NCBI GenBank assembly: GCA_050273025.1
Contig: CP158635.1
Span: 8,742,001 to 8,806,000 of the forward strand
Direction: 5' to 3'
Length of the DNA: 64,000 nt
From: Cenococcum geophilum
Taxonomy: Eukaryota
Position numbers and translations under genes: made by a program. Below, piece by piece: positions 15,201-64,000 of this stretch. Positions within the stretch are counted from its first letter, which is position 1, and each line of letters opens with the position of its first letter. Below the pieces are notes generated by a model. The model saw only the letters and a program-made list of their open reading frames with translations. It did no database searches and had not been told where the DNA came from.

Positions 15201-15254
15201 AACGACCAGCCGAACCATCAAGTCGGGTCACAGCCTCTGCCATCTTAATTGACT

Positions 15255-38406: not shown

Positions 38407-39969
38407 TGTTATAGGATACCCCTATAACACCTTATACACGTCTACCTGTTTCTACTAACTCAGCAATTAAAGACCAACCGTGAAATGGCAATTTAAAGGC
38501 AATCTAATGGCAATCTAACGGCAATCTACGGCATTCTGCTATATTCTGCCAAGTTCTACCAAATTTTACCAAGTTCTGTCAGGACTATAACCTAAACCCT
38601 ATTCTGCCTATATACGTATTAACTAAGTAACTAAGTTAATAATATATGCCCTTTCTTCCCGTTTTTCTACCTTCTTTCCTTATATAACGTCTTAACCTCC
38701 TTATACAGTTTATATATATAGCTTAATAATATCTACCTTACTATATATTATCGTCGCTTATACTTACTTTATAATACTACGTTACGTTAATTACCTATAC
38801 TATTATTAATATATAGAACGAACCTAAAGCCCCTATAACGGCCGCTAGTATTATATCCGCACTTTAAGAACAATTAGTAGAGATATAGAAGTCTTTTATA
38901 AACGCCCTTAAATAGAACTAAGCTACTTTAAATTAATAATAAGCTAAATAAGAAGTATAATATTAGCAATTAATTAAGGACCTTTAAGAAGAAATCCGCG
39001 CCCTTAAGATGCCTACGCTAGGACCTTAAGATTAAACGCTATCTTTAGAGATAAATACGCGGAACGCGAGCCCCAAACCCATAGTAGCTACTTACCCTAA
39101 GCTAACCACTATACTAAAACAATCTAAACAACTACTAGATCCCCTAATATTTATTAGTAAACAATAAGAGCTCTAATTATTTCTAAGCTAGCTTAAAAAT
39201 AAGCTAACTAGTAATGCTAACTATTACCTAACTAAAGCTAACCAACTCTGTTACGCCTTAAGTTAACTAGGAGGAGATATAGCTAACCTTATTAAACTGC
39301 TTTAGCTAAACTTAGTATAAAGCCTAGTTATACTTCTTAAAGCTATATATAGTAACCTAAACCGCTAAGCTATTGCTTAAAAAAAGATAAACTATATAAC
39401 TTAAGGAATAAAAAGTTTCCTAGTATACTTTTCTAAATTTAACCGTTACGTAAAGGAAACAGGCTAAAATGACTCCGCACTAATTAACAGCCTTATTAAA
39501 TCCCTAAGCCCTAAACTAAAAACCTCCCTAATAGGCGTAGACCTACTAGGAGCCCTTAATGCCTATGTAAACGTTATTAATAAATAATATAATAATATAC
39601 TACGCCTAATACCGAAGCCCGCTCCTTAATATAATACGGTAACCCTATAAATGTTTACTCAATTATTATTTTAGCCTAAGCACCCTAACGCTATAGATAT
39701 TAACACTAGGACCTTAGGGTACGCCCTACTAGGGTCCTCTAAATAAGAATAACGCATTAAGCTAGGCCTCTACTTTAAATATAAAAGTAGCTCTTACTTC
39801 TCTAACTACTACTCCGTCCCTATACCTAAACATAAATTATAAACGGCTAACACTAGTAGCCGTTCACCGTATTAATCTTTTAGTTACCGTCCCTAATCTC
39901 TACCTAGTTCTAGCCCTATATTTAGTAAGCACTATTTATAAAAACAAAGCTACAGCTAACGTCCCTAGT
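38407..39969 (+). mobile_element. 5' fragment of another gypsy (LTR ~38407-38775 plus gag)
   Basis: TGTT start. gag motifs FLS(Q)LKNKL...QLCYALS.LGGD and ETG.NDSAL. RIPped Zn knuckle GLYFKYKSSSYFSNYY at ~39770. No pol. Confidence 0.7.
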
Positions 39970-41712
39970 AATAACGCGTTAATATACTTAATTTAGGGTT
40001 ATAGGGCGCCTTCTACCTTTAGGCGGAGAGCCTAAATATATACGCTTGCTAGGCAGTAATAGGGCGTTAGTATAGCTAGACGACCTCTTTTTGCTAGAAC
40101 TTTAACCTTTCCTAATTTTCACTCTAGCCGGTTTTAGAGGCATTATTAAATCTTCTAGCTTATAGTTTGTCGCTCTTATAATATTTAGCCCCTTACAGAC
40201 GTTATTATAAATATTATCTTCTTTACCGCCTATATAAACTGTCTTATAGTAATAGTACCTAGCCATATTAACTACTCCTTTCTTTATTACCTTACGCAGT
40301 AGTTTACCTTCTTCCTTACGCTATAGGTACTGCCACAAGTCTTTAATAATAAGGGGTATCTTAGAGGTGTCCCCCTTACGGTGTGCTTTTTAGCAAGTAG
40401 TCGCTTAACTAGCGATACAGCGTGCCCGCTTTATAGGTTTGTTAAGGATAAGACGCTTAGTCTAATTATTGCGCACGACCTTAATATATCGCTTACCGTC
40501 TAATATTAGAATAGTAGGGTTAAACCTAAGCTGCTCCTTATTTATCTAGAGAAATCCTAACATTATTAAGGTAAATTATAGTCCGTCTTTATTAATATTA
40601 AATAGTAATAATGCAATGCCTCCTATCTAGTTATACTCCTATAGCCATATAATAGATCTATAAAGGGTAAAGCTTAGGATAAAGCAACGAGTGTCCTAAG
40701 CGGCGAAGACTTCTCTTATATATTTTCCCAAATCAAACTATGCCTGCGAGGCTATATCGGTGTTTAGATTACTCTTTAGCTTTTCTAATATAAGTATATA
40801 TAACTAATAGCATTAAGAGCTTTCGCTAGCTATTAGATTATCTATAAAACTAATATCTAGCTTTTACTTTACTGTAGACCCTTATAAGGGCTGCTTAGTA
40901 TATATAATAAGCGTTTATCGTGTCTTTAGGGCGGACCTATGCTCCTCTGCAAAGCCCAAAAATAATTTAATTAGGTTATTAAACTACTCTAAAACATTAA
41001 TCTACTCCGCGCTTTTAGGCCAGTTATGCTAGCCGCCCTTAGTATATAGTAGATTGTCCCCTTCCTTACATTTCTTAAAAACGGCGGCGCTTGCCTCTTT
41101 AAGACCTTCTACTTCCCTAAAGAATGCTTTATATAAGCCAGGAATCCCCATATAAAGAGAGCCTAGCTCCTCCTTTAAAATATAATCTATATATTTCCTA
41201 TATTTGGACGAGTTAGTAAAGCTGCTTATATTACGTAGATATAGGGTTTATTAAATATAGAGTAGTAGCGGTTAGGGGGGAGGCATGGACTTTATTATAG
41301 TGGTAATAGTATTACTCCAAACGTCCTTATCTAATTCGCGATTAATAACTATTTTTAGGAGAGGGGTAAACTGTTCAATATTAAAGTTGTTAAAATTAAC
41401 TAAAGGGAGGAGTTAGAGAAGGTCACTATAAAGAGTGCCGCAGCTAGCGCTAGACGGGAGTAGTTAAGTAGCGAGAAGGTTCTATAATACTAGGATAAGG
41501 TTAACTATAAGATTTTTAAGCCCTATATATGTTAGAGAAAACCTATAACGGATAAATTAACAATTACCTTTATAGCCTATCTAGCGCAACAAGTCTAGAG
41601 AGCTAGGGATGCCTAGATCCTAATAAGTTAAGTTAAATAAATCGCGAAAGCTATTTAGCCCTTCCCTAATAGGATTTGTTTTAATTATCTTTAATCTAAA
41701 GAGATTCGCTAT
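39970..41712 (-). pseudogene. FunK1 fungal-specific protein kinase (Pkinase_fungal), RIPped, C-terminal half missing
   Basis: IIKTNPIREGL, LKEELGSLYMG.PG, EKLKSN...DIAS.A.FDLGKY.REVFAA.DTR.F.LSFTL, RARCIAS(R)ATTC(W)KA, PL.IKDLWQY..RKEEGKLL. It ends at N(R)V(H)(R)RVI against the gypsy gag. Confidence 0.88.
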
Positions 41713-42259
41713 TACGAGCGAACGCGCTAAGAGCTATATTGGGAGGGCCGGCGTAGCAGGCGGGTAGGTAGGCGGGGAGGGGAGATTAAAGAGGCTAGTA
41801 TATAAGGACGGTATAATAGCAAATAAATATAGGGAGGTTAAGAATATGTCGGGCGCGTCTTATAATAAGGAAATAACTAGGGGGAAAAGTATAAGGAAGA
41901 AAGCAAGGTGTGAGCGAACATAAGGATTAAGGATTGGGCGTGAAAAAGTTAAGCCGACCTAATATGGTTTAGACTAAGGCTTTACAGGGCTTAGTTAAAT
42001 ACTAAGCCACAATAGCCTAAATGCGGGTAGGTAGCGTTTTTTGGTCTATAACTAATTATACTTATCAGTTTTAGTTTGTTCCGCGACGTGTAAGGCTCTA
42101 ATATAGCGGGGCTCTTATACAGTGAGGCTAAAGGGGGGCCGGAGAACGGGTTAACTATAGGGTTAGTTGTATAAGCGCCTATAAACGATTATATGGCTAG
42201 TTTTAAAACGAGTTAAACCTAATACGCTAAATATAGATATAGTTAACCTTTTTAAAAAT

Positions 42260-42480
42260 AGGTTCTAGTTCTCAGAACTAGATCTAGTTTTTAAAATTAC
42301 GCCCTTTTTTATAGCGGTTAATTAGCCCATATCTAAAATAGGAATTAGGATCTAGTCTCTAAAATTGGATCTAGTTTTTAGAATTATAATTTAAGCTAAA
42401 ACCTAGAATTGGGATATAGTCTTTAAAATTAAAATATGGTCTCTAAAATAAGATCTAGTTCTCAAAATAAGATCCTGTTT
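42260..42480. repeat. Degenerate ~19-20 bp repeats (GGATCTAGTTCTCAAAAT-like)
   Basis: About 8 imperfect copies visible. Confidence 0.65.
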
Positions 42481-42859
42481 TTAATCAAAACTTAGGCCAA
42501 TATTAAGGGGTAGATCCTATATTTATTCTTAATATTCCTACCCCATTAATATAAAATTTAAAGTTAACTTACACCCTAGAATGGGAGGATATCTAAATTT
42601 AGAAGGCGGTAAGCTAAGGCGGTTAATTTCTTAGCGGTAAAGATTTTTTAAAACGCACCTCTATACTATAAGCGAGTCTCTTAACTTCAGTCTAATATAT
42701 AAAAACTTATTCCTTTATATATAAATAATAACAAGATATTCTTAATATAGAAGTAACTAGATAGAAACAAAACACCAAGCTAAGGAAATCCTAATTAACG
42801 CCTTAATTCTTAATGAATGCTAAAAGAGATAAGCGTGATTGCGAAAATCTGTCCTTATA

Positions 42860-43900
42860 AGAAATTTATTATTCCTTAGGCTTCTTAAAACCTCTATCTC
42901 TAGTATAAACCGCCTTTCTCTTACATATCCTTCTCCCTAATAGCTCTTTTAATAAACCCTCTAATACCCTCTTAGCTATCTCTATTATAATATCTTAAAG
43001 TAGTTTATATATTTTAGCATAACGATAGAGGAAATAAAGATTCTTAGTATAGTATATTACAAGTCTCTCTTGCGGTATATCCACGGCTAAAACCCAGGTA
43101 GGATACCAGTATATTACTACAATATCGCCGTATAAAGATATAATTCCTCTATAACCAGGGTTTCGGAGATATATTATGTCCTTTATTATATAATAAGTAG
43201 GTAACTAGGATATAAGATACTTTACTTATCCACTTAAGATCTTAGCATTAAAAATTGTTAATACTTTAGATGGATATATATAGACTAAACCATTCTCTAC
43301 TTAATTATTAGTGTTGCTAAATAATATAGGTGTCTTATAAATATACCTCTAGGTACCAGCGAAATGTATTTAAAAGCCACGACTGTATTTATCTGCTAGG
43401 ATAAGCCTTTAACGTAGTTCTCTTTTAGTTAAGGCGAGTCTATTTTAGCCTCGCCATAGTTCTCTATTAGCTTAGGTAAGTCTATCTTAGTTTTACTATA
43501 GCCTTCTAAACCCCTAAGGTAACTAAGGTATATTTTTTGTACACTTACCTAAACCGTATCCTCTTATGTATCGTCTTTTATATTATTATCCTTTTCGTAA
43601 AAACTGGCCTTATTAGGTGTTTAGGTAGGTATCTGCTCCTATATACGACCGGAAAGCTACAATTATTTCTCCTCCCTACTATTGGACGCCGCGTCTTTAG
43701 CGTTAATATAATCTTAAGACGATCTAGGGTTTCTAGTAGGTTAATAATTAGGTATAATATCTTCGGGGAGGTAGCATATAGTAATGTCTTTATAAGTACT
43801 AATTGAGGGCCTATAAGCTATATTAGCAACGTATCTAAATTTAGTTAAGGTAATATATATAATGTCTGGTATTCTTATAAGGATAGTAAGGGATATATAG
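42860..43900 (-). pseudogene. Hypothetical protein (RIPped cargo)
   Basis: Frame of ~200 codons with only RIP-type stops (GYSKTKIDLPKLIENYGEAKIDSP...LYGDIVVIYWYPTWVLAVDIPQE). No family recognised. Confidence 0.5.
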
Positions 43901-45607
43901 TTAAGAGGTTAGATTTAAAGGTAAGTTAAATTAATAGTATATAAGAACCAGGAGCATGACGTTTATATTCTATTTCTCTCCTAAGGCAGAGTTAGGATAA
44001 AAGGTAAAAGGGAAAGACGGAGTATACTAGCCGCCCCTTTCTACTTTATATGGTGTCTGTAGTACAATATTTAGTAGCTGTAATTACTCTTAGCTTATAT
44101 ATTATCTGCGCCCAAGACTATAGGTACCTAGAGTAATCCATAAGTGAGGCATTATTAGGGGTAGCTATTGGCTGAGCTGCTACTGAACTTAAATGGCTAA
44201 CGATCCCTAACGGACACCGTATACCTTAGTAGGGTTTAGAAGCGTTCGCATAAAGTTATAAACTAGAATTAGAAGTTAACAATAACCCCTAATAACGCCT
44301 CTCTTAGCAGAAATAGTATTATATAATCTACTTTTAACGCCTATCCTTTCTAGGGTAAGACACTGCCTAAGCAGTAGACTTATCCTAGCTAGTTAATTTT
44401 GTATATTAACCCCCCATCTATAGCAAAGGAGCTATTAGTGCCTTTAGGGTAGTTTAATTACTATTCTAGCTAAGCCCTTTATAAGCGCTCCGCCTTATAC
44501 GGGCGGTAATTAACTCCTATTAATCTGCCTTACGTTAGGGGAGATTTTTTACTTAAGGTACTAAGCAGCCGGTACTTAGAGGTCTATAGATATATTCTAT
44601 ATCCTAATAACATCGACTACAATTTCTCCTTAAGTAGTATCCGTAACCCTAAATACCTATAAGCGCAGCGTCCCTAAATTGTTAGCTAGTAAGTAGGCGT
44701 TTATAGATAAAAAAAACTAACTTCAGAGATAACAGCAACGTAAAGGCGTTAGCTAGTTAAGAAAGTGACTTTAGTAATAAGGATTAAGAATAGGACGCAG
44801 AGATATTATATAACGGAGAAAATGGTTTTAGTACTAAAGATTAAGAAATAGGGGTAGATAGTAATAAAGAGATATTAAGCGATAAGGCTATATAGGCGAC
44901 GGTTAGATATGGTGGCCTTAGCTTTATAGTCTTAAATCTATAAGTATAGGATATAAATATAAAGAAGATTTCTAATAAAAGCTGGTAAAAGGGTTAAAAC
45001 TTTAGCTACTTTTTGTTTAGCCTATTACAAAACAAAATAATATTTTACTATTTCTACTAGAGTCTCTGCCCGCTTAACTTATAGCGAGCTATAAAGCATT
45101 CGCGATAATCTATACTTTTACTCAGATAAATTTATTTACTATCTTAAAAGCGATAATAGAAGGTAAATCTATGCTAATAACCTAGGATTTTTAAAAATTT
45201 TTATGGACCTGGGACGCATACCACCTTAGCAACTATTAGTTATATTTAAGACTACGGTACTTATAGATTTATATCTTAAGGATATAAACATATTTTTTTA
45301 TAGTGTTTTCTTTTTATTTAAATTATTTCTCTGCTTATAGTATATAGCGGTTATTTATCTATTCCAGTGTAGTAAGGAGAGGTAGTTAGGTTACGCGAGA
45401 GGGCTTAGACTTATAGCTACGCTTATAGGGCTATTTATATAGGAACTTCTCTAAGTATGTGTAAGGGGTCTTTATATAGGAACTTCTTTAATATTTTTAG
45501 ATCTGGGACTTATATATTTCTTTTTTTATAGTTTTAGTATTTTCCTAATATTTGCTTCCTATTTATATGCTAGGCGTTAATAGAGGGCGCTAGGTCAGAT
45601 CACCCTG

Positions 45608-45905
45608 CTTATATAATTACTCTACTTATATAATCACTCTACTTATATAATTACCTAGCTCGCATAATTACCTAGTTTGCATGATTACCTAGCTCGTACA
45701 ATCGCCTAGCTCACACGATTACTTAGTTTGTATAATTGCCTAGCTCGCACAATTACCTAGTTTGCACGATTGCCCAGCTCGTACGATCGCCTAGCTTGTA
45801 GGAGCACTATGCTTATACGATTACCTGGCTTATACGATTACCTAGCTTATAGGATCGCCCAGCTCCTATAAGTATCTAGCTTATAGGATTACCTAGCTCG
45901 TATAA
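45608..45905. repeat. 17-bp tandem array (GATTRCCYAGCTCGCAC-like), with further copies to ~46060
   Basis: About 15 imperfect units. The flank AGAGGGCGCTAGGT is duplicated at ~45582 and ~45964. Confidence 0.85.
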
Positions 45906-46069
45906 TTAAAGCCGTGAAGTTATTAAACCCATTAATACCCTATTTACACGCTAGGTATTAATTAGAGGGCGCTAGGTTAAACTACTCTACTTATACAATT
46001 ACCTAGCTTATAGGATCCCCTAGCTCCTATAAGCCCCTAGCTTCTATAACCTCCTAGCTTATAGGACTG

Positions 46070-48430
46070 AAGCTATAGCCGCTAAATCCGTTAAGATCCT
46101 AGCTGCACGTTTGGAGGACGCTACGCCCAACTACCTAGCTCGCTATTTTTATAGAATTCCTTAATTAATCGATGGTGCCTATTTGGAAAATATCCCTTAA
46201 TGACTTTCTATAATAGAAATTTCTTATTACGCAATTCTATAAGAAGATTTACTTCCTTAACTATCTATACTGGCTCTTTAGCGCGAAGGATATAGCTATA
46301 ATAGCGCTAATATACACCTAGTGTTCTCCCTAACAGGGCTTTTATAATATCATTCTATAATAAAACTATAAGTAATACCTGGTGACCTAGCTCTATAAGG
46401 ATTCGATCTTTATAGGGTGTCTAATTTTAAGACTAGGGCTTTTATAAGGCTTTATTTGTAACAATAATTTTTAAAAATATTAGTAAAGCTATTAGAAGTT
46501 GCATCTAAGAAAAGAAACTAACCGGCGATATACGCTAAAACTCTATATCCAGGTTATAGGGTTGTAAGAGATCCTATATATTACTTAACCTAGCAAATAT
46601 AAGTGATATATAGCCTCAGTAGGATAAGGTATAAGACGTATAGGATTAGGTATATTTCCGAAATTTGAGCTAGCAAATATGGTACCTATTTGGCAATATT
46701 TATAAATAGAAACCTATCCTGCCTTAAAAAGTATATAATAGCTTTCTCTTTATTTATCCATTTACTACTTACTCTAGTATTAAGAAAAAGGCTATAATAT
46801 TTCTGCTTATAACCTAATATTAGTCTATTAAGCTTAGACGAAATACTACCCCAACTATTACTATCCTTAAAGGTTGTATTTATTAACTTAAATTATTCCT
46901 TAACTAACTAAAACTCGTATATAGATGCTAAGGGCTTATCGTTTATATAAAAGCTGGTTAAGTTACACTTTATAAAGTATTAGTAGAGTCTTACTAGAGA
47001 AAGGCTAATGGTGTAAACTAATAGTTTAGGTGGTTTTTAGAGAGCTAAGTTAATTAATGTTAAGCGGGTAATCGGCGCTGGTAGCTCTAAATTAACAATT
47101 ATTAGTAAAACCCTCGCTAGACGCTAGACTAGTCGCTCTTAACTTATTAGGAATATCTATAAAGTAAACCTTATTATCTAGACCAATAGATTTCATTAAT
47201 ATTGAAAATGATAGTAATAGATTATATTGCTAGAGTGATTAATTAAAGTATATCTTATATTAAAACTATAAGAGGTATAGCAGGAGCGTTGGCAGTAATT
47301 AGGAGGATATTTAGTAGAACATATTTATTTAATAGAGCACTAGGCGGCTAATGAATGCAATAACGCTACTAATACGACTCCCCCTTAATACACGAGCGCT
47401 GCAATTTTAAGAATTTTAGATGTATGCACGTAAATTTACATTATAGTATAAGCGGATTTATTTAAAGACTAAAGGATGAATTTTAATTATATGCCGAAAT
47501 CTTAACTTTAAGCTAGATATAAAAAACTACTATTAAAGGTCCGTAACATTAATAAGTGGACGTAGCTTCTATAAGAGAGTACTATATATACCTTTCTCTT
47601 TAATATGGTCCTATAAGTCTTAAAAAATCGCCTAGATTATAGTCTATAATTTAATTAGAATAGATACTATATAAAAGATATTAAATATACTTAGACTTGT
47701 AATGCGTTAGAGCGATTATATATTAACTTAGAGAAAGCAGATATATAGATAATATCCTATACTTTTTGCTCTCTAGTTCTTCTATAAAGAACACTAAGGA
47801 AATCCTATAGAGGCTTAGGGAATAAACGAATTATTCTATAAGAGAGTATATCCGCAGTCCTCTTATAAGTCGGAGTCTTATCTATTAAAGTCTTATCTAG
47901 GCAAGTGCTGAGAATTTTACTTAATATTATATTATTAAGTGTTTAGGGGACTTATTAGTATTATATATATATAGGATCTACCAGACCCCTAAATACCCTT
48001 TACTGGTTACTTAGGCCCATAGTGATTTAATTAGACAATAAACTAGTGCTAGGACGCTTAGAATTGTTTAACTTAAAAGGTATTATTTCCTTACTTTGCG
48101 AGCTCTCTATAGGCTAACTAATCCCAATAATAGAAGATGCCTTTTCTAGATCTACCTTAACAGATTATAGGGTATTCGCTTATTAATAAAGCTTAGTAAT
48201 TAATACACTATATCTAGAATCTTAATCCTAACCGTAAGCGGCTATTAAAGTACTAATGATTAATATAAGAGGTAGCTAAATATAACGCTTTAAGAAACTA
48301 ATAGTTAGCGTAATCTAGTAAGTTGCGGCTTTAATAAGCAAGCTAATAGTTAAATAAGCATCTATATTAAAGAGTAAAGAGCGGCTATAAATAGTTAGCG
48401 GAAATAGGATAAGCTAGGGAATAGTTTAAA
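46070..48430 (+). pseudogene. Long hypothetical protein (RIPped cargo)
   Basis: Open frame apart from RIP stops (ILAARLEDATPNYLARYFYRIP.LIDGAYLENIP...). No family recognised; end approximate. Confidence 0.5.
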
Positions 48431-49073
48431 AGGAGTAGTGAAAATAGTAAAGCAGGGTAGTAATAAATAAAAGATATAAAAGACGCGTTAAGGTAACCGG
48501 CAGAGTAGGCGATAAAGGTAATTATATATCCCTAGTGTAATGGGGCGGAAATTAGCTCTATATATTAGGTATTTCTATGTCTTTTCCTTTAGATAGCATC
48601 CTTAGATCTATTAAGGCGTCTTACTCTTTAGCTCCTTAAGGAAGAAATTATTACAAATTGTATATCCTACGCGTTAGTTAGAAAAGGAATCCTCTAATAG
48701 TATTAAGGCTTATAGCCTTCTGCGACGGAACAAGCTATATTACTAAATATTTTACATTACACGTCTAATTAAGTTTGTGACTTATATTGCCTCCTATCTT
48801 AGCTAGAAGAGAGGTCTAATTCTTAACTACGCATTATAAGTAAAAGCGAGGTTAATAATTGCCACTATATTAGCGCAGCTCTAATAAGGGCCTTGCGCTA
48901 ATTATATCACTTTAATTAGGTACGTGACACTTAATTAAAGCGATATAATTAGCGTAAGGCTCTTCTAAGTTTTAGGGGCGCTAGCGACCTACTAGGGAAT
49001 TAAGAGTAGAGGGGAACTGCACTTAACTACTCTTTTATCTTAACACAAATTATATAACTTATAACCCACTATT

Positions 49074-50560
49074 ATGGACTTTAACATTATAGCAGCCTTA
49101 GATTTTATCCGCAATGCTTCTAATAAGCAGCTTTAACCTTATCTCCCTAATATTATATATACTATTTAAAGGCTCTAAAAGCTTCCTATTAACACCTTTT
49201 AATATTTACCGCCTCTCTTAGAGAATGAACGCGGCCACTATAATTCGCTCTATACTCCTTTAGGGAGTAAGGATGTCTAGCCTTTTTTAGGGAATAAGGA
49301 TGATGCCGTTTAGTCTTCTTTAGGGAGTGTTTAGCCTTCTCTAGGGAATAAGGATGTCGTTAAGCCTTTTTTAGAGAGTAAGGATATCTAGCCTTCTTTA
49401 GGGAGTGTCTAGCCTTCTTTAGGGAATGAGGTTACTTCTCTACCTCCCTTTTTACCTAGATGTGCGAATCTGCTTAATATATTATCGGTAAACCTCTTTA
49501 AGATTAAGACATTTATTAATATATCTATGGGGAAAGATCTAAAGGCTATTATTAGCGAACTAAAGTGGTTAAACGAACATCCCCTTATTAAGGATCTTAT
49601 TACTACTAATAGCGATTTATTAAATAACGCTATTTTTTAAAAACTTCTTAACTAATAGACGCTTGCGGATTTTTTTAAGAAATAGCAATTAAAGTCTATA
49701 GGTATGTTAAGGATTAAAAGTTTAGTTAAAAGTTGAGCCGCTTTTATAAAGGGAGTCAGCTATATTAAATTATTTATAAGAAGTATAGGATGTCATGACG
49801 TTACTAAAGTGGCTTTAGCTATTAGATATGGAATTAAGCTTTATGTTATATAAAGACTTAAAGTAGTAGGGCTATTAGTTCCCTTAGCTTTTACCTATAA
49901 TACCTACCGGAGATTAAATTTACCTAATATTAATAACTTTTTTATGGCTTTATAGTACCCGAATTATTTTATAATATTTAAAATTGCGTAAAGATGCTTA
50001 ATTTGGATAGGGAAGTGTTAAGAGCTCTATTCTGGTCAGATGCTTTCTCTAGGACTACTATATCTTAGCACTACTAACCCGTCCTAGCCGATCCCGAAAA
50101 AGCAAATTTCCTCCCCTTATTTACTGATTAGTAAACGTCCCTATATAAAAGTTACTAAACCTAGGGATCCTATATTAGCGCGTAATTACCGACACGCAGA
50201 TTTAATAACATTGCACCCTCCCTAACTATTAATAATAGCCTTAACGAATAACATAGCTGCATTATAGTCTATTATAAAGGCGGAGAGTACACTTATTAAG
50301 ATCTTTAGTGGTAATTCTAATTAGTATTAAGACCCTCCGCTAATTCCTATAGAGCTCTATAGGGCCTATCCTAATATATATTAGGGTCGTCCACAAATTC
50401 CCCTAGAGCACTTTTATAGCAATTCCGATATATATTGGGGCCCTCCACTAATACCCTTTAAGCTATTTAACGGCTATCCTGATATCTATTAGGGGCCTCC
50501 ACTAATTACTACGCTAAGTGAGGGCAAGTTTTCTAGTTTTTATATTACTCCGGCTAGTAC
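49074..50560 (+). pseudogene. Hypothetical protein with internal repeats (RIPped cargo)
   Basis: MDFNIIAALDFIRNAS start. ~27-bp repeats at 49255-49430. AIRYGIKL.V motif. Three DIYWGPP-like repeats at 50360-50510. Confidence 0.5.
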
Positions 50561-50599
50561 CACGACAATAAACAATGGGCTTAATTACTATACTACGGC

Positions 50600-52201
50600 T
50601 CCTTATATATAGTGTACTAGTTATCGCAGCCTATAAGGCTTATTATACTCCAACGTTCTTAATATGGCATCTCTTATATATCAATTTAACGCTATTACGG
50701 CTGCTGCGGGGTAGTAGCTGTTTTGGCTTATATAGATACATAAATAAGTCCACCTCTACTCCCTTTAAAGATTTGAGGTGTATAGTATAGGGCACCTAGC
50801 GTCTCGCCACTTTAGAGTTAAAAGGATTAGTAGTCCTTTAACACTTTAAACTTCGGTAATCTATTGCCCAAGTCCAACGATTTAACGGCTAATATTACTA
50901 TAGCCTTTTCTAAACTCTCTGCGGGTATATACGGAAGGGGGCTTTATAGGTTATTATATAGTATTAGATATAACTATTTAAGAGATACTACGTTGGGGGT
51001 TGTGTTTAGAATTATAGTAGCGATAGCTCTGGCTATCTAGTTATAATTATTAGTAAAGCGTTACATCTATTCTAGTATTTAGCACTTACCTCTAAGTATA
51101 GAGTAATGTATTTATCTATTATAGTAGTGGCGGGTAAAGTAAAGAAGGGTATATTAAACGTCTATAAAGAATACCCTTGGCTCTATATTACTAGATAGGC
51201 TTTTAAATTATCTGCATCTTTACTATTAATGCTAGGGGCTATCTATAGTGTAGACATAATTGAGTTTAAGAAAGAAGTTATAATTAGGGGACTTTATTAG
51301 TAAAAGATAATAAAGGCGATTTAGGGCTAGATTTTTAATAGGGCTAAAATCTTAGTGGAGCTAATTTCCGGTCGGTAGGACCTACGTAACATATTAACAA
51401 TAAAGCCTAAATATCTAATATGCCTTAGTCCGAGAGGTTAGGCAATATATAAAAGTTAACTGTTACTTACTTTAATATTTATTAGTAAGGAGGTTGTGCT
51501 ATAGGCCGTAGATTAAGATATCTTTTCCATTTCTATATAAAGACCTACTCCTATCCTCCTATTAACCTAAACTTTCCTCACTATTATCTACCTGCAATTA
51601 TCTTTATATTTAAGCAACCTTATAAGAATAACTGGTCTTAGTATTACTATAAAGATAGCTTAAAAGGACCCCTAGTTTTAGAGAGATAGATATACCTATA
51701 TCCGCGCTTAAGATATAGACTAGGCTCTATTTACCTACTATAATAGTTATAAACTTGAGAAAATTAAGGTAAAAGCTAAGGAATAAAATTTTTTATATAA
51801 CCTAATAGCTTTACAGATTCTTGACATAATGGCTGTCCGCTATACTTTAGCCTATTACCAATACTATGGCTAGAAAACCGTCTTTAGGGAATTTATTTAC
51901 TAAGGGAATTATTATAAAGTTCTTATATTCTTAGGTGCAGTTAAGAAGATAAATAGTAGAAAAGAAATTCTATAATAGATAGAGCGTAAGATATAGGATA
52001 ATAGAAATCGCAATATAAGGTATAGTATAGAAGAGGATAGGGATAAAGATGGGGATGTGTATAAGGACGTATATAGGGAGGATATAGTCGCCGGGATTAA
52101 GGCTTTAGGGATTAATTTAAAGAAGAATATGTCTCTCCGCTAGTAAGAGCTGTTCCTTCTATAAATAGCATAGCGAAAGCTATTATATAACGTTTTCGCA
52201 T
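50600..52201 (-). pseudogene. Hypothetical intron-containing protein, possibly secreted (RIPped cargo)
   Basis: MRKRYIIAFAMLFIEGTALTS start. GTAAGT donors at ~51469 and ~51089. Long frames with only RIP-type stops. Confidence 0.5.
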
Positions 52202-54062
52202 TTCTACACATAATTATGGCGTGCCAATTTATACCTCCCCCTATGCTACGTAATTATACCTATGGCTAGCCGAGCTAGGCTTCTCTACTTATAATAGGTT
52301 AGCCTTTTATATTCTGTAAGCATACTTAGTCTTACTCTTTACCGATCTTTTTATACCTATAGCAAGGCTAGAATAGGCGTCTTCTTATATTTATGCCGTT
52401 TAGTAAGTTGTATTTAGGCCTACCTTTATACATTCTATACCGTTTATAGCCTAACTTAAATCTACGCACTTCCTTATTGCTTTAGTAAGAACTGCTACGT
52501 AGTTTAACCTTGCTAATATGTATACACTACCTCTGCTAGGGTTTTACTAATTAATATATAAATAAACCTTTAAGACCTTTAAAGACCTCCTCTAAAGACC
52601 GGTAATAACTTACCTATTAAAGTAGGCAGTACGTAACCTGCCCCTTCTATATCTTTAGTAATCTAATCGCTACTTTTAGGTACCTATTATTGTAATAGAT
52701 ATATCTAGTGTAGGTTAAGGGTCGGCCTATTAGGTTCCGAAGTTAGGGGAAAAGATTTTTAAGGAGGATAGAAAATAAGTTATTACCTTTATTAGATGGA
52801 ATAAAGGTAAATTACGTAAAGTAAAGGTAAGTAATTGCCTATATTATAAGCGAGCAGGTCCCTAAAATCTTAAAGCTTTATAAGATTATTAGCATTCTAT
52901 ATATTCCACCTAATATTTGCTAGGCTACAATTCCTATATATAATATAATTATTAAAATATCTTTAGCTATACCGGGCTACCGTAGTAGTATATTAACTAT
53001 AACGGCACTTAATTATAATAGAGAAGCGATAATATCTAATTGCCTTTTTGGCGATATATAGTTTATAAAAGGTAGAAAGGAAGCTTTAAAGCAATTAAAT
53101 AAAAAGGTTAAGGAACTTAATAAAACCAACTGGGCTGCTAGGCCCTCCCTTATAGTTTAATTAGTGTCCTAGGCTCTACCAATGCTTGTAATAGCTATAG
53201 TACTTCCGCAAGGAAAATGATTTAAGTTTAGGTAGAGGAACTATACTGCTTAAATTACTTGATTTTATTTAGAGAGTATAAGATCTTATATAGCTTATAT
53301 AATGGTTTAGCGATTTGCTATTATTCTATAACTAAGCCTAAAGCCCTTTCCGCCTTATGCCTTTACGTTCGCCTATGCTTATAACCCCCACTAAAATTAA
53401 ACCCCCCTCTTTATGCTCTCTTCTCCTAGCCTTGCTAAAATACCTAGTATAAATGTACTTCTTTTATAATAAAGATAGAAAAGGCTATATGGAAGTGGTC
53501 TTTTAAAACCCAATGCTTAATTTTATAAACTATATAAGCATAGCTAATCTTATAAGCTAGGTGATCGTATGGGTTATATTAGTATATAGTTAAGAAAAAA
53601 GTAAAATAGTGTAATTGGTGGGCCGGTATACAGGAATATAATACTATTTAACTTTGCTTAATATGGCTTGGAGGAGTATAAAGCCTTAACCTAAGCTATG
53701 GGAATACATTCTCTAACTAAGCCTCTATTATATAACCACTAACTACTTCTAGGCGCTATAGCCGTATACCCCGCTACTTACCCTTCCTAAAACTTTAGAA
53801 GTTATACTAGTCCTTAGTTAAGCGACTAACGTTTAAAGCTTAAACTAACTAGCTAAATCTGTTGTAGATTAGATAAAGCTAATAACGACTTCTTAATATA
53901 TATATAGAGGCTCTAGAGCTACGTTTAATAAAGTAGAGTTCTTATTCTTAATCGTCCTATTTAACACTAAATTACTCCCTTAAATATTACTTAAGGCGTA
54001 GTCAAAACTAGAGAAACATACTATCTAAGAGTATTCTATTTGGCTTAGCGTAGCTTATAGAT

Positions 54063-55122
54063 AGTGAGAAATATAGCGACTTAAAACTTATATGCTAGGG
54101 GCTAAAGCTTAAAGTCTATAAAGCGATTATATGCACCTAATCTCCTATACTTACAGCTGCCTATAATAGAGGCTTTTAGGTAAAAGCTAACTAAATATCT
54201 AGTAGAATTAACCCTAACTAACTAACCGGTAGGAGGCGGCAACTAATATTATAAATATTAACGAGTTCAATTCCAGCACCGTTAAGAGAATAATCCAATT
54301 TATATATAAGGGGGATTATAATAATGGCGAGGAGGAGTAAGGATCTAATATTATAAGTATAGAAACGCTTGGCTAAGATAAGGGATATATTTATACGCTA
54401 ATCTAATTTACCCGTACTTAAACTTCAATCTATAGAATTAGAGATAGCGTAACTTAATAACGCTAATACCTTATCGCTATCTAAACTAGATAATAGCGGT
54501 GGCGATAATAAAGATATAATAACACAGACGATAACGGCCAATATTATATTTCGCCACGTCTATATTAATGCAATTACTGATTATTATGATATACTACAGC
54601 TGAAAGAGCTTATGAATATAAAAATCTAATATATTCTAGGAACTAGCTGGTCCGTAGACGGGTTTCCTAATATTATTAGGGATATTTTTAGCCTAATAGG
54701 CGACTTAGCATTATATAATATAACTACCTTAATAGCGGCCAAGTATATTAAAGAGCTTATTAAACTTAAGGACTTTATAGAGCTGGACGTTATAAGCGAT
54801 TTCGCTATTGGCATTATATAGACAGTGATTACTACATCTAAGGGTATAGAGAAAATTTTTATACTAAAACTTTAAGCTGTTTAATCTTAGCTATAACAAA
54901 CAGAATTATTGCTTTAATCCGCTAAGGTAAGGTATGCCGCGGCTGAGCGCAAAAGCGAAAATATTAATAACTGTTTTAATACCCTCTATACGACTAGGAC
55001 CTATTGTAATATTAATTATAGAGCCGAGTTTACATGTTATATTAAAGATAGTAGTTATCTATCTAACCCTAATTACCCTTATATACTTTGTTGTAAAAGG
55101 TGCGAGTATTATATATAAGTAA
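54063..55122 (+). pseudogene. BTB/POZ-domain protein (RIPped cargo); true start slightly upstream
   Basis: SEKYSDLKLIC(Q)GLKLKVYKAIICT(Q)SP...GF(Q)|intron|EAATNIINI.EFNSSTVKRIIQFIYKGDY, then HVYINAITDYYDI..LKEL. Confidence 0.85.
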
Positions 55123-55282
55123 AGATACATAGCTTAGGAGATTGGCTTAGGTAGGAAGTTATTATATAATACTTCTCTTCCTTTCTCCGTTTGGGTTAAT
55201 CTAAGAAATTTAAATGTATATCTCGTTTATAGTCGGTCCGTTAGATATTATATAGCAACTAAATTATCCATCCCCTATTAGC

Positions 55283-55395
55283 CACCCCTTACCTTACCCC
55301 TTACCTCTTACCTCTTACCCCTTACCTTTTACCCCTTACCTAACCCTTTATCTTATCCTTTACCTTACCCTTATCTTACCTATTACTCCTTGCCC
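55283..55395. repeat. Degenerate (CCTTAC/CCCTTAC)n array
   Basis: About 15 TTAC/TTAT-cored units between the convergent 3' ends of the BTB and captain genes. Confidence 0.85.
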
Positions 55396-55519
55396 CCTAG
55401 ATAAATTATAAAATCCTAGTTATTGTATCTATTCTACTAAATACTAGAATAGGATTGGATGATAATAAACTAAAATAAAATAAAAGGTAGTAAAGAATAA
55501 TAAGATAGGCGCGTAATGA

Positions 55520-58032
55520 CTAGGAAAAGGTCCTATATATACTAAGCGTATAGTTCTAAAGATGTATTTTGTGCTTAAGGGTTACTTTATAAACGTTGTA
55601 TTTAATTTTACCCTGCTTTAAAAGTTTAGAGAGATGCGCTTATTAAAAATGCTTTATAAGAGCAGTTGGAGTATAGAACCTATATATGCGATTGCTAATT
55701 ATTAGCTTTTTATTCCCAAGGCAGATAAAGTATATTTTTAGTCTTTTCTCCTTATATAAGGATAACTTTGCCCTCTTTAGCGCTTTAGCCGCTTCTAAAA
55801 TCTTAGCATCTTTTTTAATTTTAACTTAGCTAAGGGCGATACCTATCCTAAACTATCTCTAGTAATAACTCGGCCGATACGCTCTACCTTCCTTAATATT
55901 GCAGTAATCTATAACCGCATTAATGGTATTATTGCGTCTGTGTATCTTATCTTCTAGTAACGTGCTAGGTAGTGTTATAATTACTTTAATAAGGCGTTTA
56001 TATTTAACCGACCTATTATTACTAGATTTTAAGGTTGCTTTAATATCCTCGCTAAATATAACCCCGAAAAATTGCCGCTTAATGTTAATTATAGCTTATT
56101 TGTTGTCCTAATTCTTCTTAATATTTTCTAATAGCGCATTTCTCTAACGTTGCCTTTTATTTATGATTTCTCGGCTAAGCTTTTAGTATTTTATGCTTTC
56201 TATAGTTTTACGCTTAAGGCTAAGCTTTAGCTTATTTTAAACTTTAATTAAGGAATAAATACGCGGGTTCTTGTTTACCGATAAGGATTATTCTATTATT
56301 AGGTACTATAGCCGCCGCAGGTTAATTAATTGGCTTATTTAGCATACTACTTTTATTAACTTTTCTTAAGGCTCTAAGCCTTAAACGATTGCCTGTGTAT
56401 CTACGCTAATACGCTGTAGAAGGTAGTGCTTTAGAAATGTTTAAGCGTCGGCGTGCTACATTATTAGGTTCTAAAGGGCGTCACTTATATTAGGTAGTAT
56501 AGGCGTTAGAAAGGTTTTAGTAGAACTAGCTCTATATAATAGAACTTATTATTCTTATTAAATGCCTTACCTACGCCGTAACGGAGACTATATAGGCGCG
56601 CAACCTACTAAAATCCTATAATTGCGCTAAGGTCCTTAATCTAGGGCAAAAGAGTTAAGTATAGTAAAGGCTGGTTAAGTAAGACCTTATAGCCGTAGGG
56701 GGTTTTAATTAATTACCGAAATACGGGGATATTATCTAGGTCTAAACGGAGTAGTAGCGGCAACTTATTACGCCTAGGCTTAATATATAGCTTACTAAGC
56801 TGCTCTATAGACATTAGATTAGGGGCCGTAAAAGCTTTATCCGCAAAAAAAAGGCCTAGGAGAAAGACGTAAGGGTTAAGAATAAGTAAAGGGTTGAAGA
56901 TAATCTTAGGAATTAGGAAAGTATTACTAGTTCTCTGTAAGCGTAAGGAGAGGAATAAGGTAGAAAGGGAATATACGCTTCTTTTATACTAAGATATTTC
57001 TTAATAAATTTAAATATAAACTTAGGCACGATCTTATAAGGCCCGCCTTTTAGGTCGCAAATAAGTATAATTATTATATGTCGGTAGCATAGGTTAAGAA
57101 GAGCTTTAGGTTAGCTTACGGTGTAAAGGCCTAACTATAGTAAGAAATGGACTTATATCTAATATCGCCTAACTATATATCTCTTTCTCGTTGTAACTAA
57201 GTTGGTCTTAAGAACTAGGGCGAGATCCTCTGCGTCTATAATGGGCTTTTCTTACTTCTTATTACTTAAGCTATATTTCTTCGCCAGTTTCTAAAGTACC
57301 TAGAAAAGATATCTTAGCTCCGCCTTACTTTACTAGGCTAAAGGGTTAACTAGGAACGTAATTACCTTATATATCTAGCGGGTTAATTTACTAGCAATTT
57401 TCCTACTAGTTGCTCTCTTATATATAAGGCGATAGTACTTCTAGTATATACTAAGCGAGCTAGAAAGCTTTATCCCGCACTATTTCCTACCCCCCTTCCT
57501 TTATTTCTAATTTAGGAGCTAGTTAAAAAAGCTATAAAGCAGTTAAAGTGAAAGGACTTAGTACGTTTTCTTAGGGTCTTTCCTTATATAGGTGCAGTAT
57601 CTAGAAATTGTTAGCTCTAGGTTAAGCCTAAGAGAAAGCCGTAGAATAGGTTATTACTTACTAATACTATTAATCTTTAATGCGGTTAAGAAGATTCGTA
57701 CTACTATTAGTGTAGTCCTACGTCGTGAAATTGGATTCCTTAAACTCTTTTAACTGTTTAAGGTAGTATTCTGGTAAATAGTCTTAATCCTTATAAAGCT
57801 ATGCTTAAGCGGGCGCTTCGCAAGCATTGTTAGATCTAGCGATGCTATTAGCGTTATAGTTAATGCCACTATTAGCGTCACAGTCGGCGTTACTATTGGC
57901 ATTACTGTTAGCATTACTATTTAAGACAGTCAGTTCTATCCCGTAGCTATTACCGTCGCTATCTATATCTATATACTTATTGTTAGTAACGCTAAATAAT
58001 AAGCTGCAATCTAATAATCGAGTGCGCCGCAT
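55520..58032 (-). pseudogene. DUF3435 tyrosine recombinase (Starship captain), RIPped, multi-exon
   Basis: PEYYL.QL.EF.ES.FTT.DY, intron, YCTY.RKDP, SSL.IY(W)K.YRL, DLKGGPY, PYVFLLGLFFADKAF, VARLYSLRYGVGKAFN, SDAL(Q)NLIM(Q)HADA.TFLKHYL, VDTQAIV.GLEP, RRNNTINAVIDYC.IKEG, and C-terminal ICFICLG...KHF...H. Confidence 0.9.
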
Positions 58033-58545
58033 TCTAGGGAGCTAGAAAAGAACTTAGGGTAGTGACAGCGGGAGGGACCTAGAGGGTAATAACGGCGGGA
58101 AGGATCTAAAGAGTAATATAGGGTTAAGGAGATAGGAGGGTAGAGAATAAGAGAAACGGGGCCTAAATTAAATGGATTAGAGGTAGGAGCCATGGAGTAT
58201 ATATAGCTTTAGCGCTAGGCGCGTAGAAGGATTATAGTCTGCCTATTAAAAGTAAGGGGCATAGGGCGGTAAGTAAGAGGCTTAGGGCGGCGGGGAGTTT
58301 TAGAGATACGACTTTTAAAAACGGCGACAGAACCCTCTAAAACCGGCAGTTAGATCTCCATTTTCTTTTTTAATAGAGTAAAAGAGTATAAACTTATCCC
58401 ATTATAAAGGTAGCGGAAACCTATTATAGGCTTCCTAGATAAGTATTAGATTAAGCTATATAGTACCTATAAGCTTATAGTGTTAGTGGCCGATATATAT
58501 AACCGCACTAAGGTGGTTGGCCTATAACCCTTTTAGGTGGCTAAC

Positions 58546-59129
58546 TATTATACCTAAGCCTAACCCACTTAACCATACAAACTACTAAAAAGGTAGTAGT
58601 AGTGTCTCGTAACTAGACGGGCTACCGGTTGGAATGTCTTATAAGCTCTCTAGCCTATATATAACGTATAGGTAGCGCAAGGTATAATAACTGCACCCCC
58701 TCCTAGGGCGCATATCCTTAGGCGCCTGGACTACAATAAATAGCTAGCCTTTTGCTAGGTAGTCTTGGCCATATAGCGCGCAAGCTACCCACAGCACCCT
58801 AGCTATAATTATAAGGCGTCCCCGCTAGTACCTAAATGTACTAGCACTATTAAGCTATAAGGTGACCTTCTAGTAAGCACGTATAATACCCCATACTAAC
58901 TATAGAGAGTGTAGTCGCTTAGGCTGTCCCGTACTTGTAAATATTCAACCCTATACTAAATTAAATACTAACCTCTAGGTAGTTGCGAGATATATTATTA
59001 TACTTAAGCCTAACCCACTCGACCATATAAACCACTAAAAAGGTAGTAGTAGTGTCTTGCGACTAGACGGGCTACCGGTTGGAATGCCTTATAAGCTCTC
59101 TAGCCCATACTATAGGTATAGGTAGCGCA
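58546..59129 (+). repeat. 134-bp direct duplication (58546-58679 and 58996-59129)
   Basis: Near-identical copies 450 bp apart, just before the protease C-terminal motif. Confidence 0.85.
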
Positions 59130-62100
59130 TTGCATAATACTAACTTTATAGGTTACAACCTTATCCTTAGATACCCTTGGCTAGTAAAAGTAGATCTTAA
59201 AATACGCTTTAAAACTGGAGCCTTTAAATAATGGAATAATAAAGATTTAGGAGGGCGTATATTACTAATAAGCCTAAAGGATATCTTAGAGAATATAGCC
59301 CTAGGCGAAATAGTATACGCTCTATACCTAAAGAAGTATTAGATCTAACCCCTATTTAATAGTAAGATAGGTATAGAGCCTAGTATAGGTAATAACCCCT
59401 CTATAATGGAGACCCTATAGGGAACTACTGGATAGGTCGTAGAGATATTATAGGGAGGCGGCGATCTTAAGGATCTTATAAGATACTTTAACCGCTATAG
59501 GTTACTCTGGCTTAAGTAATATGCGGAGAGTATACTACGGCACCTTAAACGCTGCGTTAAGGAGTTCCCTACCCTCTACTAGCTACTATATAAAACGGTT
59601 TAACATACGGTGGTAACTATATATAAGTAATTACTATAGTATATAACGCTGCCCGTAAGTATCCTAAGGGAGCTTTAGAACCTACCTAATAATAACGCGG
59701 AGGATAAACGTGACCCTAATTTATTAAATATTCTAGTAGGCCTAAGGGACTTACTAAGGGTATTTTCGGGCAAGAGAGCTAAAGTCCTACCATAGAACTT
59801 GGAGTATAATTATGTAATTAATCTAGAAGAAGGTAAATAACCGCCGAACCTTCCTATCTATAACCTCTTATATAAAGAGCTTAAGATCCTATAGGAGTAC
59901 CTTAATAGCTTACTAGAAAAGGGGTGGATCCGGCCTAGTAAGTCGCCGTTAGGCGTACTAATCCTCTTTATCCTAAAACTAGATAGAACTATAAGGTTAT
60001 ACGTAGACTATCGCGGTCTTAATAAGATTATAATTAAGAACCGCTACCTACTACTACTAATTAGTAAAATGCTGGATTAACTATCTAGGGCAAAGATCTT
60101 TATAAAGCTAAATCTATAAGACGCCTACCATAGGCTCCGTATTAAAGAAGGGGATAAGTAAAAGACCGCTTTTAAGACCCAATACGGCCACTTTAAGTAT
60201 CTGGTAATGCCTTTTAGGCTAGCTAATGCGCCTATAATATTCTAATCGTATATTTATAGAGCCTTAGGGGGACTAGTCAACCGTATATACGTCGTCTATT
60301 TAGATAATATCTTAATCTACTTAGAAAATGAGGATTAACACGAGTAACACGTCCGCGAAGTGCTAGAACGTTTAAATAATTGGGGCCTCTACACTAAGGC
60401 GTTAAAGTATATCTTTAATACTAAGCAGGTCGAGTTCCTGGGTTATATTATAACGCCTATAGGTGTAGTTATAGACCTAGTATAGGTATAGACAATTTAG
60501 GAGTGGCCGGAGCTAAAGAGCTACTAGGATATTTAAGTGTTTCTAGGCTTTGCCAATTTCTATAGGCACTTTATCTATAATTACATAGACGTCGCCTAAT
60601 ACCTATTTAACTATATTATAGAAGCTTCCTAAGACCCAACCTAAGGAGTAAAAAGCTTAAAGGCGGTAAGGAAGAAAACTAAGAAAGGACTAACTAAATA
60701 GTATAAGCTATAGTTATGGCCCGGAAAGGTTTAGGAGGCCTTTTAGGAACTTTATATAAAGTTTATAAAAGCTTTATTACTACGGCATTTTGACCTAGAT
60801 TAGCTATTAATAATAATTACTAATGTATTAAATTTTGCCCTTATTAGTATCCTACTATAACCTAATAGGCATCCGGATACTACCCAGCTCTATTAGAGAC
60901 TAGTAGCATTTTATAATAAAAAATTCCAAGGACCTAAAGTTAGGTATTATACCCACGATAAGGAACTACTGGCTATAGTTAACTGCTTTAAATAGTGGCG
61001 ACACTACCTTAAGTACGCGAGCTATACTACTCGTATACTCTTAGATCACTATAATCTACGCTACTTTATAACTATAAAGGAGCTTATACCTTAATAAGCT
61101 AGATAGGCAGAGGAGCTTATATAATTTAATTTTAAGATTAAATACAAGCTAGGGGAAAACAACCCTACTAATAGACCGTTATAACGGCTAGACTATACCA
61201 AAGGCTTTAAAACGGGAGAAGGAAAATAGATAATAGATATCTTACTCCCTATATTATAGAACAAGCTTTAGGTATAAAATGCTTAAGCACCTATAGCTTT
61301 ATATACTAAGTCTTAGGCGGTGTAAGCCCTATTAGTTTCTATTAATATTTTAGCTAGTACCCGGTCCGTTGCCGATAAGGGTCTAAATATACCTAGATAG
61401 GACATTCCTAATACATTCTTAGAACCTGGTGATATACTATCCCTAATTACTAAGCTATCCCCTTAAACTAATAGCGAAGCTATAAAGTAATCGGAACTTA
61501 GAGCCCTATAATAACTAAAGGACTTTAACCTTATAGCGGCCTTCCTAATATACGCGTATTAAAGAGTTATAAGATCTATAGTACTATTTAGTCTTATACT
61601 TAGAGTAGTATAAAATAAAACAGCTTTTATCTGGGAACTATTTAAAAGGTTAATGGATCTCATCTGTGAGGTATAACGGAGGGACGCTTCCTATGCTATC
61701 CTTAATGCGGAAGTAGACCGGAAACGTAATAAAAAGGAAGCTGCTAGGTGCTATTATTGGGAACTAGACCTAATGGGCCTACTGTGTAAAGGTGGTAAGG
61801 TTTAGGTGCTATAAGAAGTAAATCTACAACAGAAGATTCTTATAAAGAATTACAATAATCCTTTAGGCGGCCACTATGGTTAAGTAAAGACAGTGGAATT
61901 ACTTTAACGCAAATACTATTGGCTAAGGCTTAATTAGGAAGCAAAGGAGTATATTAGCTATTGCGAGAAGTGTTAAGTATATAAGATCCGTAGGTATAAG
62001 CTATAGGGTCTACTTAAATTAGTTCCCCCCGCTAGTAAGCTATGGCGATATTACGCTATAGACTTTATTACGGATCTTCCGCCATCTAAAGATGGCTAAG

Positions 62101-63240: not shown

Positions 63241-64000
63241 AATTAAATAGGGAACGGACAAGCTCCGGAAACTATAAGGATTAGGGCTATAGCCTAAGGC
63301 AGGACTGGTCTTTAGCCTTTTTACGTATATAGCATAGAATTAATAGGGCATTTTGCTAGAATTATATACCTATTAATTAATTTATACTAGGAATACTATT
63401 CCTAGGGCTTCTAAGCCCTTCCTAAAAGCCTTCTAAGGCCTTCCTAAGCACCTAATTAAGGTCCTTAATTGCTACTATATATAAGAATAAATCCTAAAAG
63501 TCTAAACCATAAATATCCAATTTAAAAAGCTACTACGCCTTATTATTATTAGGAGTAGGATTAGTATCTATTAGGCCACTAAGTGATAGCTAACGAGAAT
63601 GGGATCTAGATGCCTTGGTAGGCGTATGAGTAGGTATGAAAACAGGGGTAGGATGATGAGGTGTGGCTGGGGCGGAGACTCTTAAACGCTTAATACTAAC
63701 ATTAGGTCCAAACCAATACTAATAAAGCTCTTGCGGCGTAAGCTTATAGTTAATAAAGACACGCTTAAGCCTAGAATAAATAGAGACGTTAGCTAGCTGG
63801 CATAGTCCAGAACCACTAAGACCTTACTATGGTAACTATTAGTTACCTATCTGCTAGGTACCTAAAGGGTAACCTACCTAATACCGTATTATATTATACT
63901 CTTTTAAAACTTAACGCGTATACGCAAACTCCTTTTTATAGTAGATAGCGACCTTCTTCTTATTACCCTTATCCCGCACCCTATCCTTAGTATACTAACC

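Follow-up and report, generated by a model that had tools for sequence, protein, structure and literature searches.

In all likelihood, the block at positions 39961 to 58381 of a 64,000-nucleotide stretch of the Cenococcum geophilum genome is part of a dead copy of a Starship, an element of roughly 29-34 kb that belongs to the Prometheus family (fam05), has TTAC ends, occurs in dozens of copies and, in this copy, was later split by an inversion. The stretch, called the window throughout, is G000:C1:8,742,001-8,806,000 (contig CP158635.1 of assembly GCA_050273025.1), in a genome of 178 Mb on 7 contigs; positions given without a contig are counted within it. A preliminary description, made from the letters of the window, had proposed that the block was once multicopy and mobile and was inactivated by repeat-induced point mutation (RIP). 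Dispersed copies, common termini, different flanks, TTAC repeats, empty sites and transition-only divergence all bear this out, and neither the absence of a DUF3435 match nor single-copy syntenic core genes as cargo, which the description had named as speaking against it, was encountered.

The first gene of the element, pointing inward with its ATG 349 nt inside the 5' end, encodes the captain, a DUF3435 tyrosine recombinase. With stops read as X, the PF11917 profile scores above its cut-off in all three minus-strand frames of 55400-58400, and the three matches (profile 2-95, E 1.6e-12; 85-210, E 4.8e-32; 213-418, E 1.7e-34) cover profile positions 2-418. In a tblastn search, an intact homologue aligns with the window in four blocks, in order, between 57804 and 55523. 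The gene runs from the ATG at 58032 to a stop ending at 55520, about 760 codons in five exons, so that the multi-exon minus-strand gene originally reported at 55520-58032 is complete in extent despite its stops. The RxYSLRYG and NLIM.HA...FLKHY regions claimed for it are visible in the translations as RLYSLRYG and NLIM.HADA.TFLKHY, and the C-terminus carries a CxxC...HxxxxH (C2H2-like) motif. The nearest homologues are proteins named from Coniosporium and Zopfia; R, K, R, H and Y positions held in common with homologues persist across the copies, the first R being a stop in the window.

The window captain has 43 in-frame stops, 38 of which lie opposite R, Q or W of the intact homologue, and its last splice acceptor bears a 4-nt deletion that is absent from 14 other aligned copies. 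Every one of the 15 aligned captain copies has between 27 and 48 stops. When RIP is reversed by counting the C/G alleles that survive in any of these 15 copies, the stops in the window captain fall from 43 to 8 and its identity to the Coniosporium protein rises from 47% to 62% over 727 aa. Relative to the closest copy, the captain region shows 239 transitions and 2 transversions, and the mutated fraction is 0.64 for CpA, 0.37 for CpG, 0.12 for CpC and 0.11 for CpT. Judged by this signature, the damage to the captain is that of RIP acting on a once intact gene.

RIP marks extend across nearly the entire window, in which 11 stop-free frames of at least 100 aa occur in 64 kb, none of them within the Starship block. 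The description had held the block to be RIPped as heavily as the transposons, and the composition agrees: the guanine-plus-cytosine (GC) content is 0.336 in 39961-58381 and 0.362 in the retrotransposon flank, TpA/ApT is 1.61 and 1.82, and (CpA+TpG)/(ApC+GpT) is 0.48 and 0.41, respectively. Elsewhere in the window, an island of normal composition (12000-15500; GC 0.52, RIP signal absent) with short imperfect repeats lies inside the transposon nest, and 28282-30778 and 36103-38406 form an inverted pair of a 2-kb repeat, 72-88% alike and 5-10 kb apart.

Copies of the element are spread over the whole genome. Among the matches listed from a DUF3435 search (best 100 of 341 candidates scored; 165 matches, 150 of them listed), at least 65 distinct captain loci, on all seven contigs, have the exon layout of the window family, and for about 30 of these loci identity to the family was checked at the nucleotide level. 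A search with the upstream region found 38 other copies with the 5' end at 58381 among the best 40 of 547 candidates; the 3' end, located by following two other copies outward, recurs in 39 other copies among the best 40 of 1832. Fifteen pairs of 5' and 3' ends span 33.2-67.2 kb, nine of them within 33.1-34.1 kb. An unbroken copy at C6:6.47-6.51 Mb is 90.5% identical to the window block over 18.5 kb and forms with it haplotype 1, which measures 29 kb without nested insertions. In haplotype 2 (C1:10.91 Mb and C7:3.20 Mb; about 34 kb), most of the region corresponding to 45.9-53.8 kb is replaced by other DNA, and in haplotype 3 (seven copies read) the captain is joined directly to the kinase gene, with more than 50 kb of other cargo beyond. 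These captain-plus-kinase copies had been considered as minimal elements of 5 kb, a possibility that was rejected on account of the further cargo. Captain, kinase and termini form the frame common to all haplotypes.

Whole copies diverge by 1579 transitions to 19 transversions in the 5' half and by 993 to 15 in the 3' half, and transversions within haplotypes amount to about 0.1% (19 in 18,338; 10 in 22,308; 16 in 16,757). Because the copies differ almost only by transitions, they must have been near-identical when RIP struck, and it seems probable that they spread in a burst and were then inactivated.

The termini can be placed to the base. TTAC stands at 23 of the 27 5' ends read (the remainder are ATAC in two, TAAC and TTCC), and each of the 30 3' ends read closes with TTTAC, the DNA beyond being for the most part unrelated; the flanks of other copies mostly differ from those of the window copy, switching exactly at TTAC. 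The 5' arm of the terminal inverted repeat is set back from its end of the element by 5 nt more than the 3' arm. Empty sites, for which the preliminary description had suggested looking, were recovered: 9 of 18 joined flank pairs are contiguous elsewhere across one TTAC-type core, five of them cleanly, including the pair of the window copy. In the right flanks after TTAC (n=27, the 30 ends minus one element start and two duplicates of one site; background 34% for each base), T occurs at +1 in 25 and at +5 in 23, and A at +6 in 24, at +7 in 21 and at +8 in 19; their A+T content is 68%, and the base before TTAC is T in 21 of 25 left flanks. The window copy landed in a long terminal repeat (LTR) retrotransposon whose reverse transcriptase, RNase H, integrase zinc finger and Tf2 SH3 domains (59202-63400) follow the Gypsy order.

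Several copies of this retrotransposon family carry an insertion at one and the same TTAC site, with cargo haplotypes that differ (the window flank at 58382, C3:21.07 Mb, C4:13.22 Mb and C4:23.18 Mb, locus L096), and the site appears to be an insertion hot spot. A 144-nt direct repeat at 58546-58689 and 58996-59139 bounds about 590 nt that two other copies of the flanking retrotransposon lack. Repeats at 25398-25401 and 23262-23818 of the window serve as empty-site references for the Starship copies at C1:10.91 Mb and C6:4.8 Mb.

At its other boundary the block does not end but breaks. The bounds first given, 39970 to 58400, agree with the 5' end to within 19 nt, while the lower one coincides with a breakpoint and not with an element end. 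Position 39961 had itself been a candidate 3' end, at which all 39 other matches stopped; it was rejected, as 13 of 13 other copies read continue past it with the rest of the kinase. The missing half was absent from the rest of the window and from the 50 kb before it, and most of what matched the continuation of the kinase was a nested repeat unrelated to it. However, a 3' end at C1:8,251,182 lies on the opposite strand, and the retrotransposon sequence beyond it is the one that, in an empty copy (L053), continues the window 5' flank. The missing half was predicted to lie upstream of this end and was found there: beginning at C1:8,240,235, it takes up precisely at the base at which the window half breaks off and then follows the C6 copy as far as the end, which makes the whole copy 29.4 kb long. 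The kinase is divided accordingly, with profile positions 3-276 in the window and 274-386 in the distant half.

On the other side of the break lies a high-copy partner repeat, which is contiguous across both junctions in 11 of 11 other copies; the GGAC that it has in common with the kinase is exact in 7 of the 11, the remaining copies being RIP variants. Insertion of a transposon with a 4-nt target duplication was considered for the break and rejected, as the break is internal to the partner repeat. The junctions are exactly reciprocal, with no base lost or gained, only 4 nt in common and no N. As the partner repeat is contiguous elsewhere, the halves meet at the exact base and the junctions are reciprocal, the arrangement reads as a reciprocal inversion of 541,726 nt that cut the Starship copy without loss.

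Table 1. Features of the window Starship copy, its distant half and its surroundings (window positions unless a contig is named).
Feature	Position	Strand	Basis or remark
5' part of RIP-inactivated Starship, 18,421 nt	39961..58381	minus	90.5% identity to C6 copy; continued by distant half
3' part of window Starship, 10.9 kb	G000:C1:8240235-8251182	plus	alignment to C6:6.47-6.51 Mb copy
5' direct repeat TTAC, single TTAC in empty site	58378..58381	minus	junction alignments; empty sites L053 and L093 contiguous
5' arm of imperfect terminal inverted repeat	58355..58372	minus	16 of 18 nt match reverse complement of 3' end
Captain, DUF3435 tyrosine recombinase pseudogene	55520..58032	minus	PF11917 profile, tblastn, splice sites
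Captain exons	58032-57662, 57600-57366, 57299-56977, 56926-56550, about 56490-55520	minus	splice sites and intact homologue
BTB/POZ cargo pseudogene	54020..55115	plus	domain about 54020-54335; Pfam scan of copies
Cargo pseudogene without Pfam family	49002..50030	plus	homologue search; internal repeats vary in frame between copies
17-nt tandem array common to other copies	45581..46067		inside element
Candidate coding stretch	42866..43720	minus	conserved in 5 copies
FunK1 (Pkinase_fungal) kinase pseudogene, 5' part	39961..41556	minus	PF17667; cut before catalytic loop
Inversion breakpoint, 4 bases GGAC common to kinase and partner repeat	39960..39964		junction alignments
Partner repeat of inversion, high copy	38400..39960	plus	gag-like by eye only, no Pfam match
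Landing site, RIP-mutated LTR retrotransposon	58382..63400	plus	Pfam domains; empty-site copy L053

The cargo is less clearly defined than the captain. The BTB/POZ gene and the FunK1 kinase of the preliminary description are both real, with corrections: in the window the BTB/POZ copy lies on the plus strand and its domain falls below the Pfam cut-off (E 0.054; above it in two of three other copies, E 1.4e-5 and 5.5e-6), and the kinase (PF17667, E 9.6e-46, only profile 3-276 of 387) is an internal, not a terminal, gene that is cut at 39961. Behind the BTB domain, a frame of 245 codons (54382-55115) opens upon comparing copies. At least four hypothetical genes had also been proposed. Of these, 49002-50030 does have homologues (21 profile matches, 10 of which are more distant fungal proteins of 192-590 aa, E 1.5e-7 to 2.2e-4); the others, for which six-frame scans of 41400-48500 and 48400-55500 gave no Pfam family over cut-off, are neither confirmed nor excluded. 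The stretch 42866-43720 has no homologue among the best 8000 scored candidates, the frame chosen for 46300-48750 is probably not coding, and where only one to three other copies were compared, stop density did not distinguish genes from chance. In the distant 3' half there is, in addition, a DUF7025 gene (E 9e-21). Nothing in the cargo genes found points to a benefit for the host.

Other captains occur in the same genome. At C3:7,968,470-7,970,910 (L001/L005) there is a captain of a sister family without RIP (GC 0.51, TpA/ApT 0.95, one stop that is possibly intronic), whose relatives are RIPped; it is possibly a live captain. Three loci (L002, L004 and L008), all of them RIPped, represent a third captain family, a distant one in which the DUF3435 stretch is uninterrupted. 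At C7:17.88-17.91 Mb (L033-L035, L144), window cargo from about 55560 downward lies behind a different, distant DUF3435 gene (24% identity to the intact homologue of the window captain), which could be a captain swap or a nested element.

The existence of the un-RIPped captain L001, which is 60-70% identical to the same intact homologue, raises the question of whether another captain mobilised the copies in trans, in which case the window family need not have been autonomous. This seems improbable: the family's own captain is full length in 15 of 15 copies, with GT-AG introns and stops nearly all of RIP type, and was probably intact when RIP struck, while RIPped members of the sister family match the window captain over only about 63% of nucleotides. 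Still harder to sustain is passive multiplication, by segmental duplication or as a passenger in a retrotransposon nest, of a block that was never itself mobile. Shared flanks would be expected from such a process, and some do exist, namely the same 5' flank in the window, at C3:21.07 Mb and at C4:13.22 Mb, and three pairs of common 3' flanks among 30. Most flanks, however, are unrelated and change exactly at TTAC, the C3:21.07 Mb copy with the window flank has another cargo haplotype, as would be expected if a single target site in a multicopy retrotransposon had been used repeatedly, and the empty sites hold a single core; passive multiplication is largely refuted.

A different doubt concerns the inversion, which might be a mis-join of the assembly in an otherwise real element, as both junctions lie in high-copy repeats and contigs from public short reads are too fragmented to provide a bridge. 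We consider this unlikely, about as much so as spread in trans. An artefact would have to account for junctions that are reciprocal to the base, and the RIP-made divergence of about 10% between copies should let long reads separate them. Among the public runs listed, 20 of 24 contain part of the junction region; three runs cover 39000-58900 in 30 of 30 bins, and one, at very low depth, in 24 of 30.

Several points nevertheless weigh against an autonomous Prometheus element split by an inversion. The contigs of four public runs on 39000-58900 are short, and none of those listed bridges 39960/39961. Autonomy of the window family can only be presumed, because no mobility has been observed and no copy is intact, and the conserved R, K, R, H and Y positions of the captain are no more than candidates for the catalytic pentad. 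End pairs were matched by position, with interiors read for only a few copies. Nine of the 18 flank pairs have no empty site among the DNA compared, and in one empty site TTCGC stands in place of TTTAC. RIP enriches TA and AA, and the apparent target motif may be inflated by it. Finally, membership of Prometheus is assigned by proxy, through classified homologues other than the best one.

Prometheus is fam05, in clade 1 (Gluck-Thaler and Vogan 2024, PMC11162782). At least five of eight homologues looked up in the starfish table of that work, together with one cluster mate, are classified there, and all six are fam05; none is fam02, the Hephaestus family. A link to Serenity/Sanctuary, also considered, was not borne out, as neither TTAC nor a family term turned up in the passages searched of PMC12506042 and the homologues are fam05. 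Prometheus has been linked with AT-rich insertion sites, many of them in transposons (PMC11162782). The flanks of the window family are likewise AT-rich and several lie in repeats, a weak likeness in a neighbourhood that is RIPped throughout, and the window element exceeds the minimum size of 15,020 bp. Low copy number is typical of Starships (PMC11162782), in contrast with at least 65 captain loci in one genome here. "Derelict" or "degraded" has been proposed for RIPped copies (PMC11162782), and the copies of the window family that were read, all dead, would be so described. Several general features of the superfamily are found: a captain in first position, direct repeats, terminal inverted repeats, tens of kilobases of cargo and independent loci with conserved boundaries. 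Nested and tandem Starship insertions are already known.

The closest experimental comparison is Hephaestus of Paecilomyces variotii, by proxy a different family, for which scarless excision that depends on the captain, targets of the form TTAC(N7)A and RIP affecting duplicated copies have been described, along with an R-K-H-R-Y catalytic pentad of Starship captains (PMC10104507), and whose circular intermediate is joined at TTAC (bioRxiv 10.64898/2026.09.21.753150). The window family resembles it in having a DUF3435 captain first, a TTAC core that bounds the element on either side and is single in the empty site, and RIP when multicopy; a junction like that of the circle is present in the genome at C1:32,915,460. 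It differs in its target, as the A of TTAC(N7)A occurs in 98% of Hephaestus sites and in 19 of 27 sites here, where other positions are equally strong, and in its state, Hephaestus being active and carrying metal-resistance genes, the window family dead and carrying BTB, FunK1 and DUF7025 genes. The anatomy of the window family fits the excision and circle route of Hephaestus. By analogy, the captain would recombine two TTAC cores to release a circle, and the circle junction would recombine with new sites resembling T-TTAC-Y-N3-TAAA, mostly inside other transposons. Copies may have accumulated in a phase without effective RIP, such as vegetative growth, until RIP reached every one of them in one or more sexual cycles. 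The later 542-kb inversion through the kinase gene would then be a matter of microhomology-guided repair of two breaks, likelier than captain activity because neither breakpoint is an element end or a target site.

As to copy number, the Starships Voyager, Phoenix and Defiant of Macrophomina phaseolina have 0-4, 0-3 and 0-5 copies per isolate (PMC9156397). They resemble the window family in that a genome can hold several copies, some of them degraded, and in that nested transposons make their lengths vary, and the Phoenix target TTTACA resembles the TTTAC seen here. However, the "Derelict" regions of Macrophomina lack a captain, whereas the window-family copies keep a RIPped one, and 0-5 copies per isolate compare with dozens. 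The Starships of A. fumigatus occur, with few exceptions, in at most one copy (10.1101/2024.06.28.601215). No published Starship family with the copy number of the window family was found in a literature search with limited coverage of subscription journals and preprint supplements, nor, in the literature searched, any publication combining "Starship" and "FunK1"; in a term search of one survey of transposable elements in a large RIP-marked ascomycete genome, "Starship" appears in the references only (PMC12910237).

Beyond the window, some copies may have been targets for their own kind. The 34-kb type carries a target-like site on its own reverse strand, 4.66 kb from its start. At C7:3,240,500-3,245,190 (L080, L065-L066), two copies stand head to tail, and in the second of them the first 4.66 kb, which include the captain and lie between its 5' end and the internal target site, are inverted. 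At C1:32,910,710-32,959,640 (L097, L138-L143, L024; right end L146) there is a circularly permuted copy, which runs from the internal site to the 3' end, across the 3'-TTAC-5' junction mentioned above and back to the site. On one side it adjoins a left flank and on the other the 5' end of a second copy; this left flank and the right flank of the second copy are the two halves of one target repeat. A single recombination, between the internal site of a circle and the left end of a resident copy, would suffice to produce this arrangement, whereas nested tandem copies would need several more events, and it may thus be an integrated circular intermediate, unproven and known from one locus. A broader reading, in which this was a selfish high-copy Starship that reached at least 60 copies in a short burst before RIP, whose captains recombined their ends with the internal target and which left a circle fossil at C1:32.91-32.96 Mb, is tentative and falls a little short of probable.

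The window element is a dead member of a known superfamily. Starships as a kind are known; what is unusual here is the number of copies, the set of targets resolved to the base, the precise 542-kb inversion and what may be the fossil of a circle. Dozens of insertions placed to the base in one assembly amount to a natural collection of target sites for a family that has no assay, and the split copy marks and orients the inversion to the base. Because RIP erases reading frames, surveys based on gene models will miss such families. If the burst is real, at least 60 copies of about 30-60 kb would make up some 2 Mb, around 1% of the genome, and would show that Starships are able to enlarge a genome by megabases until RIP halts them.

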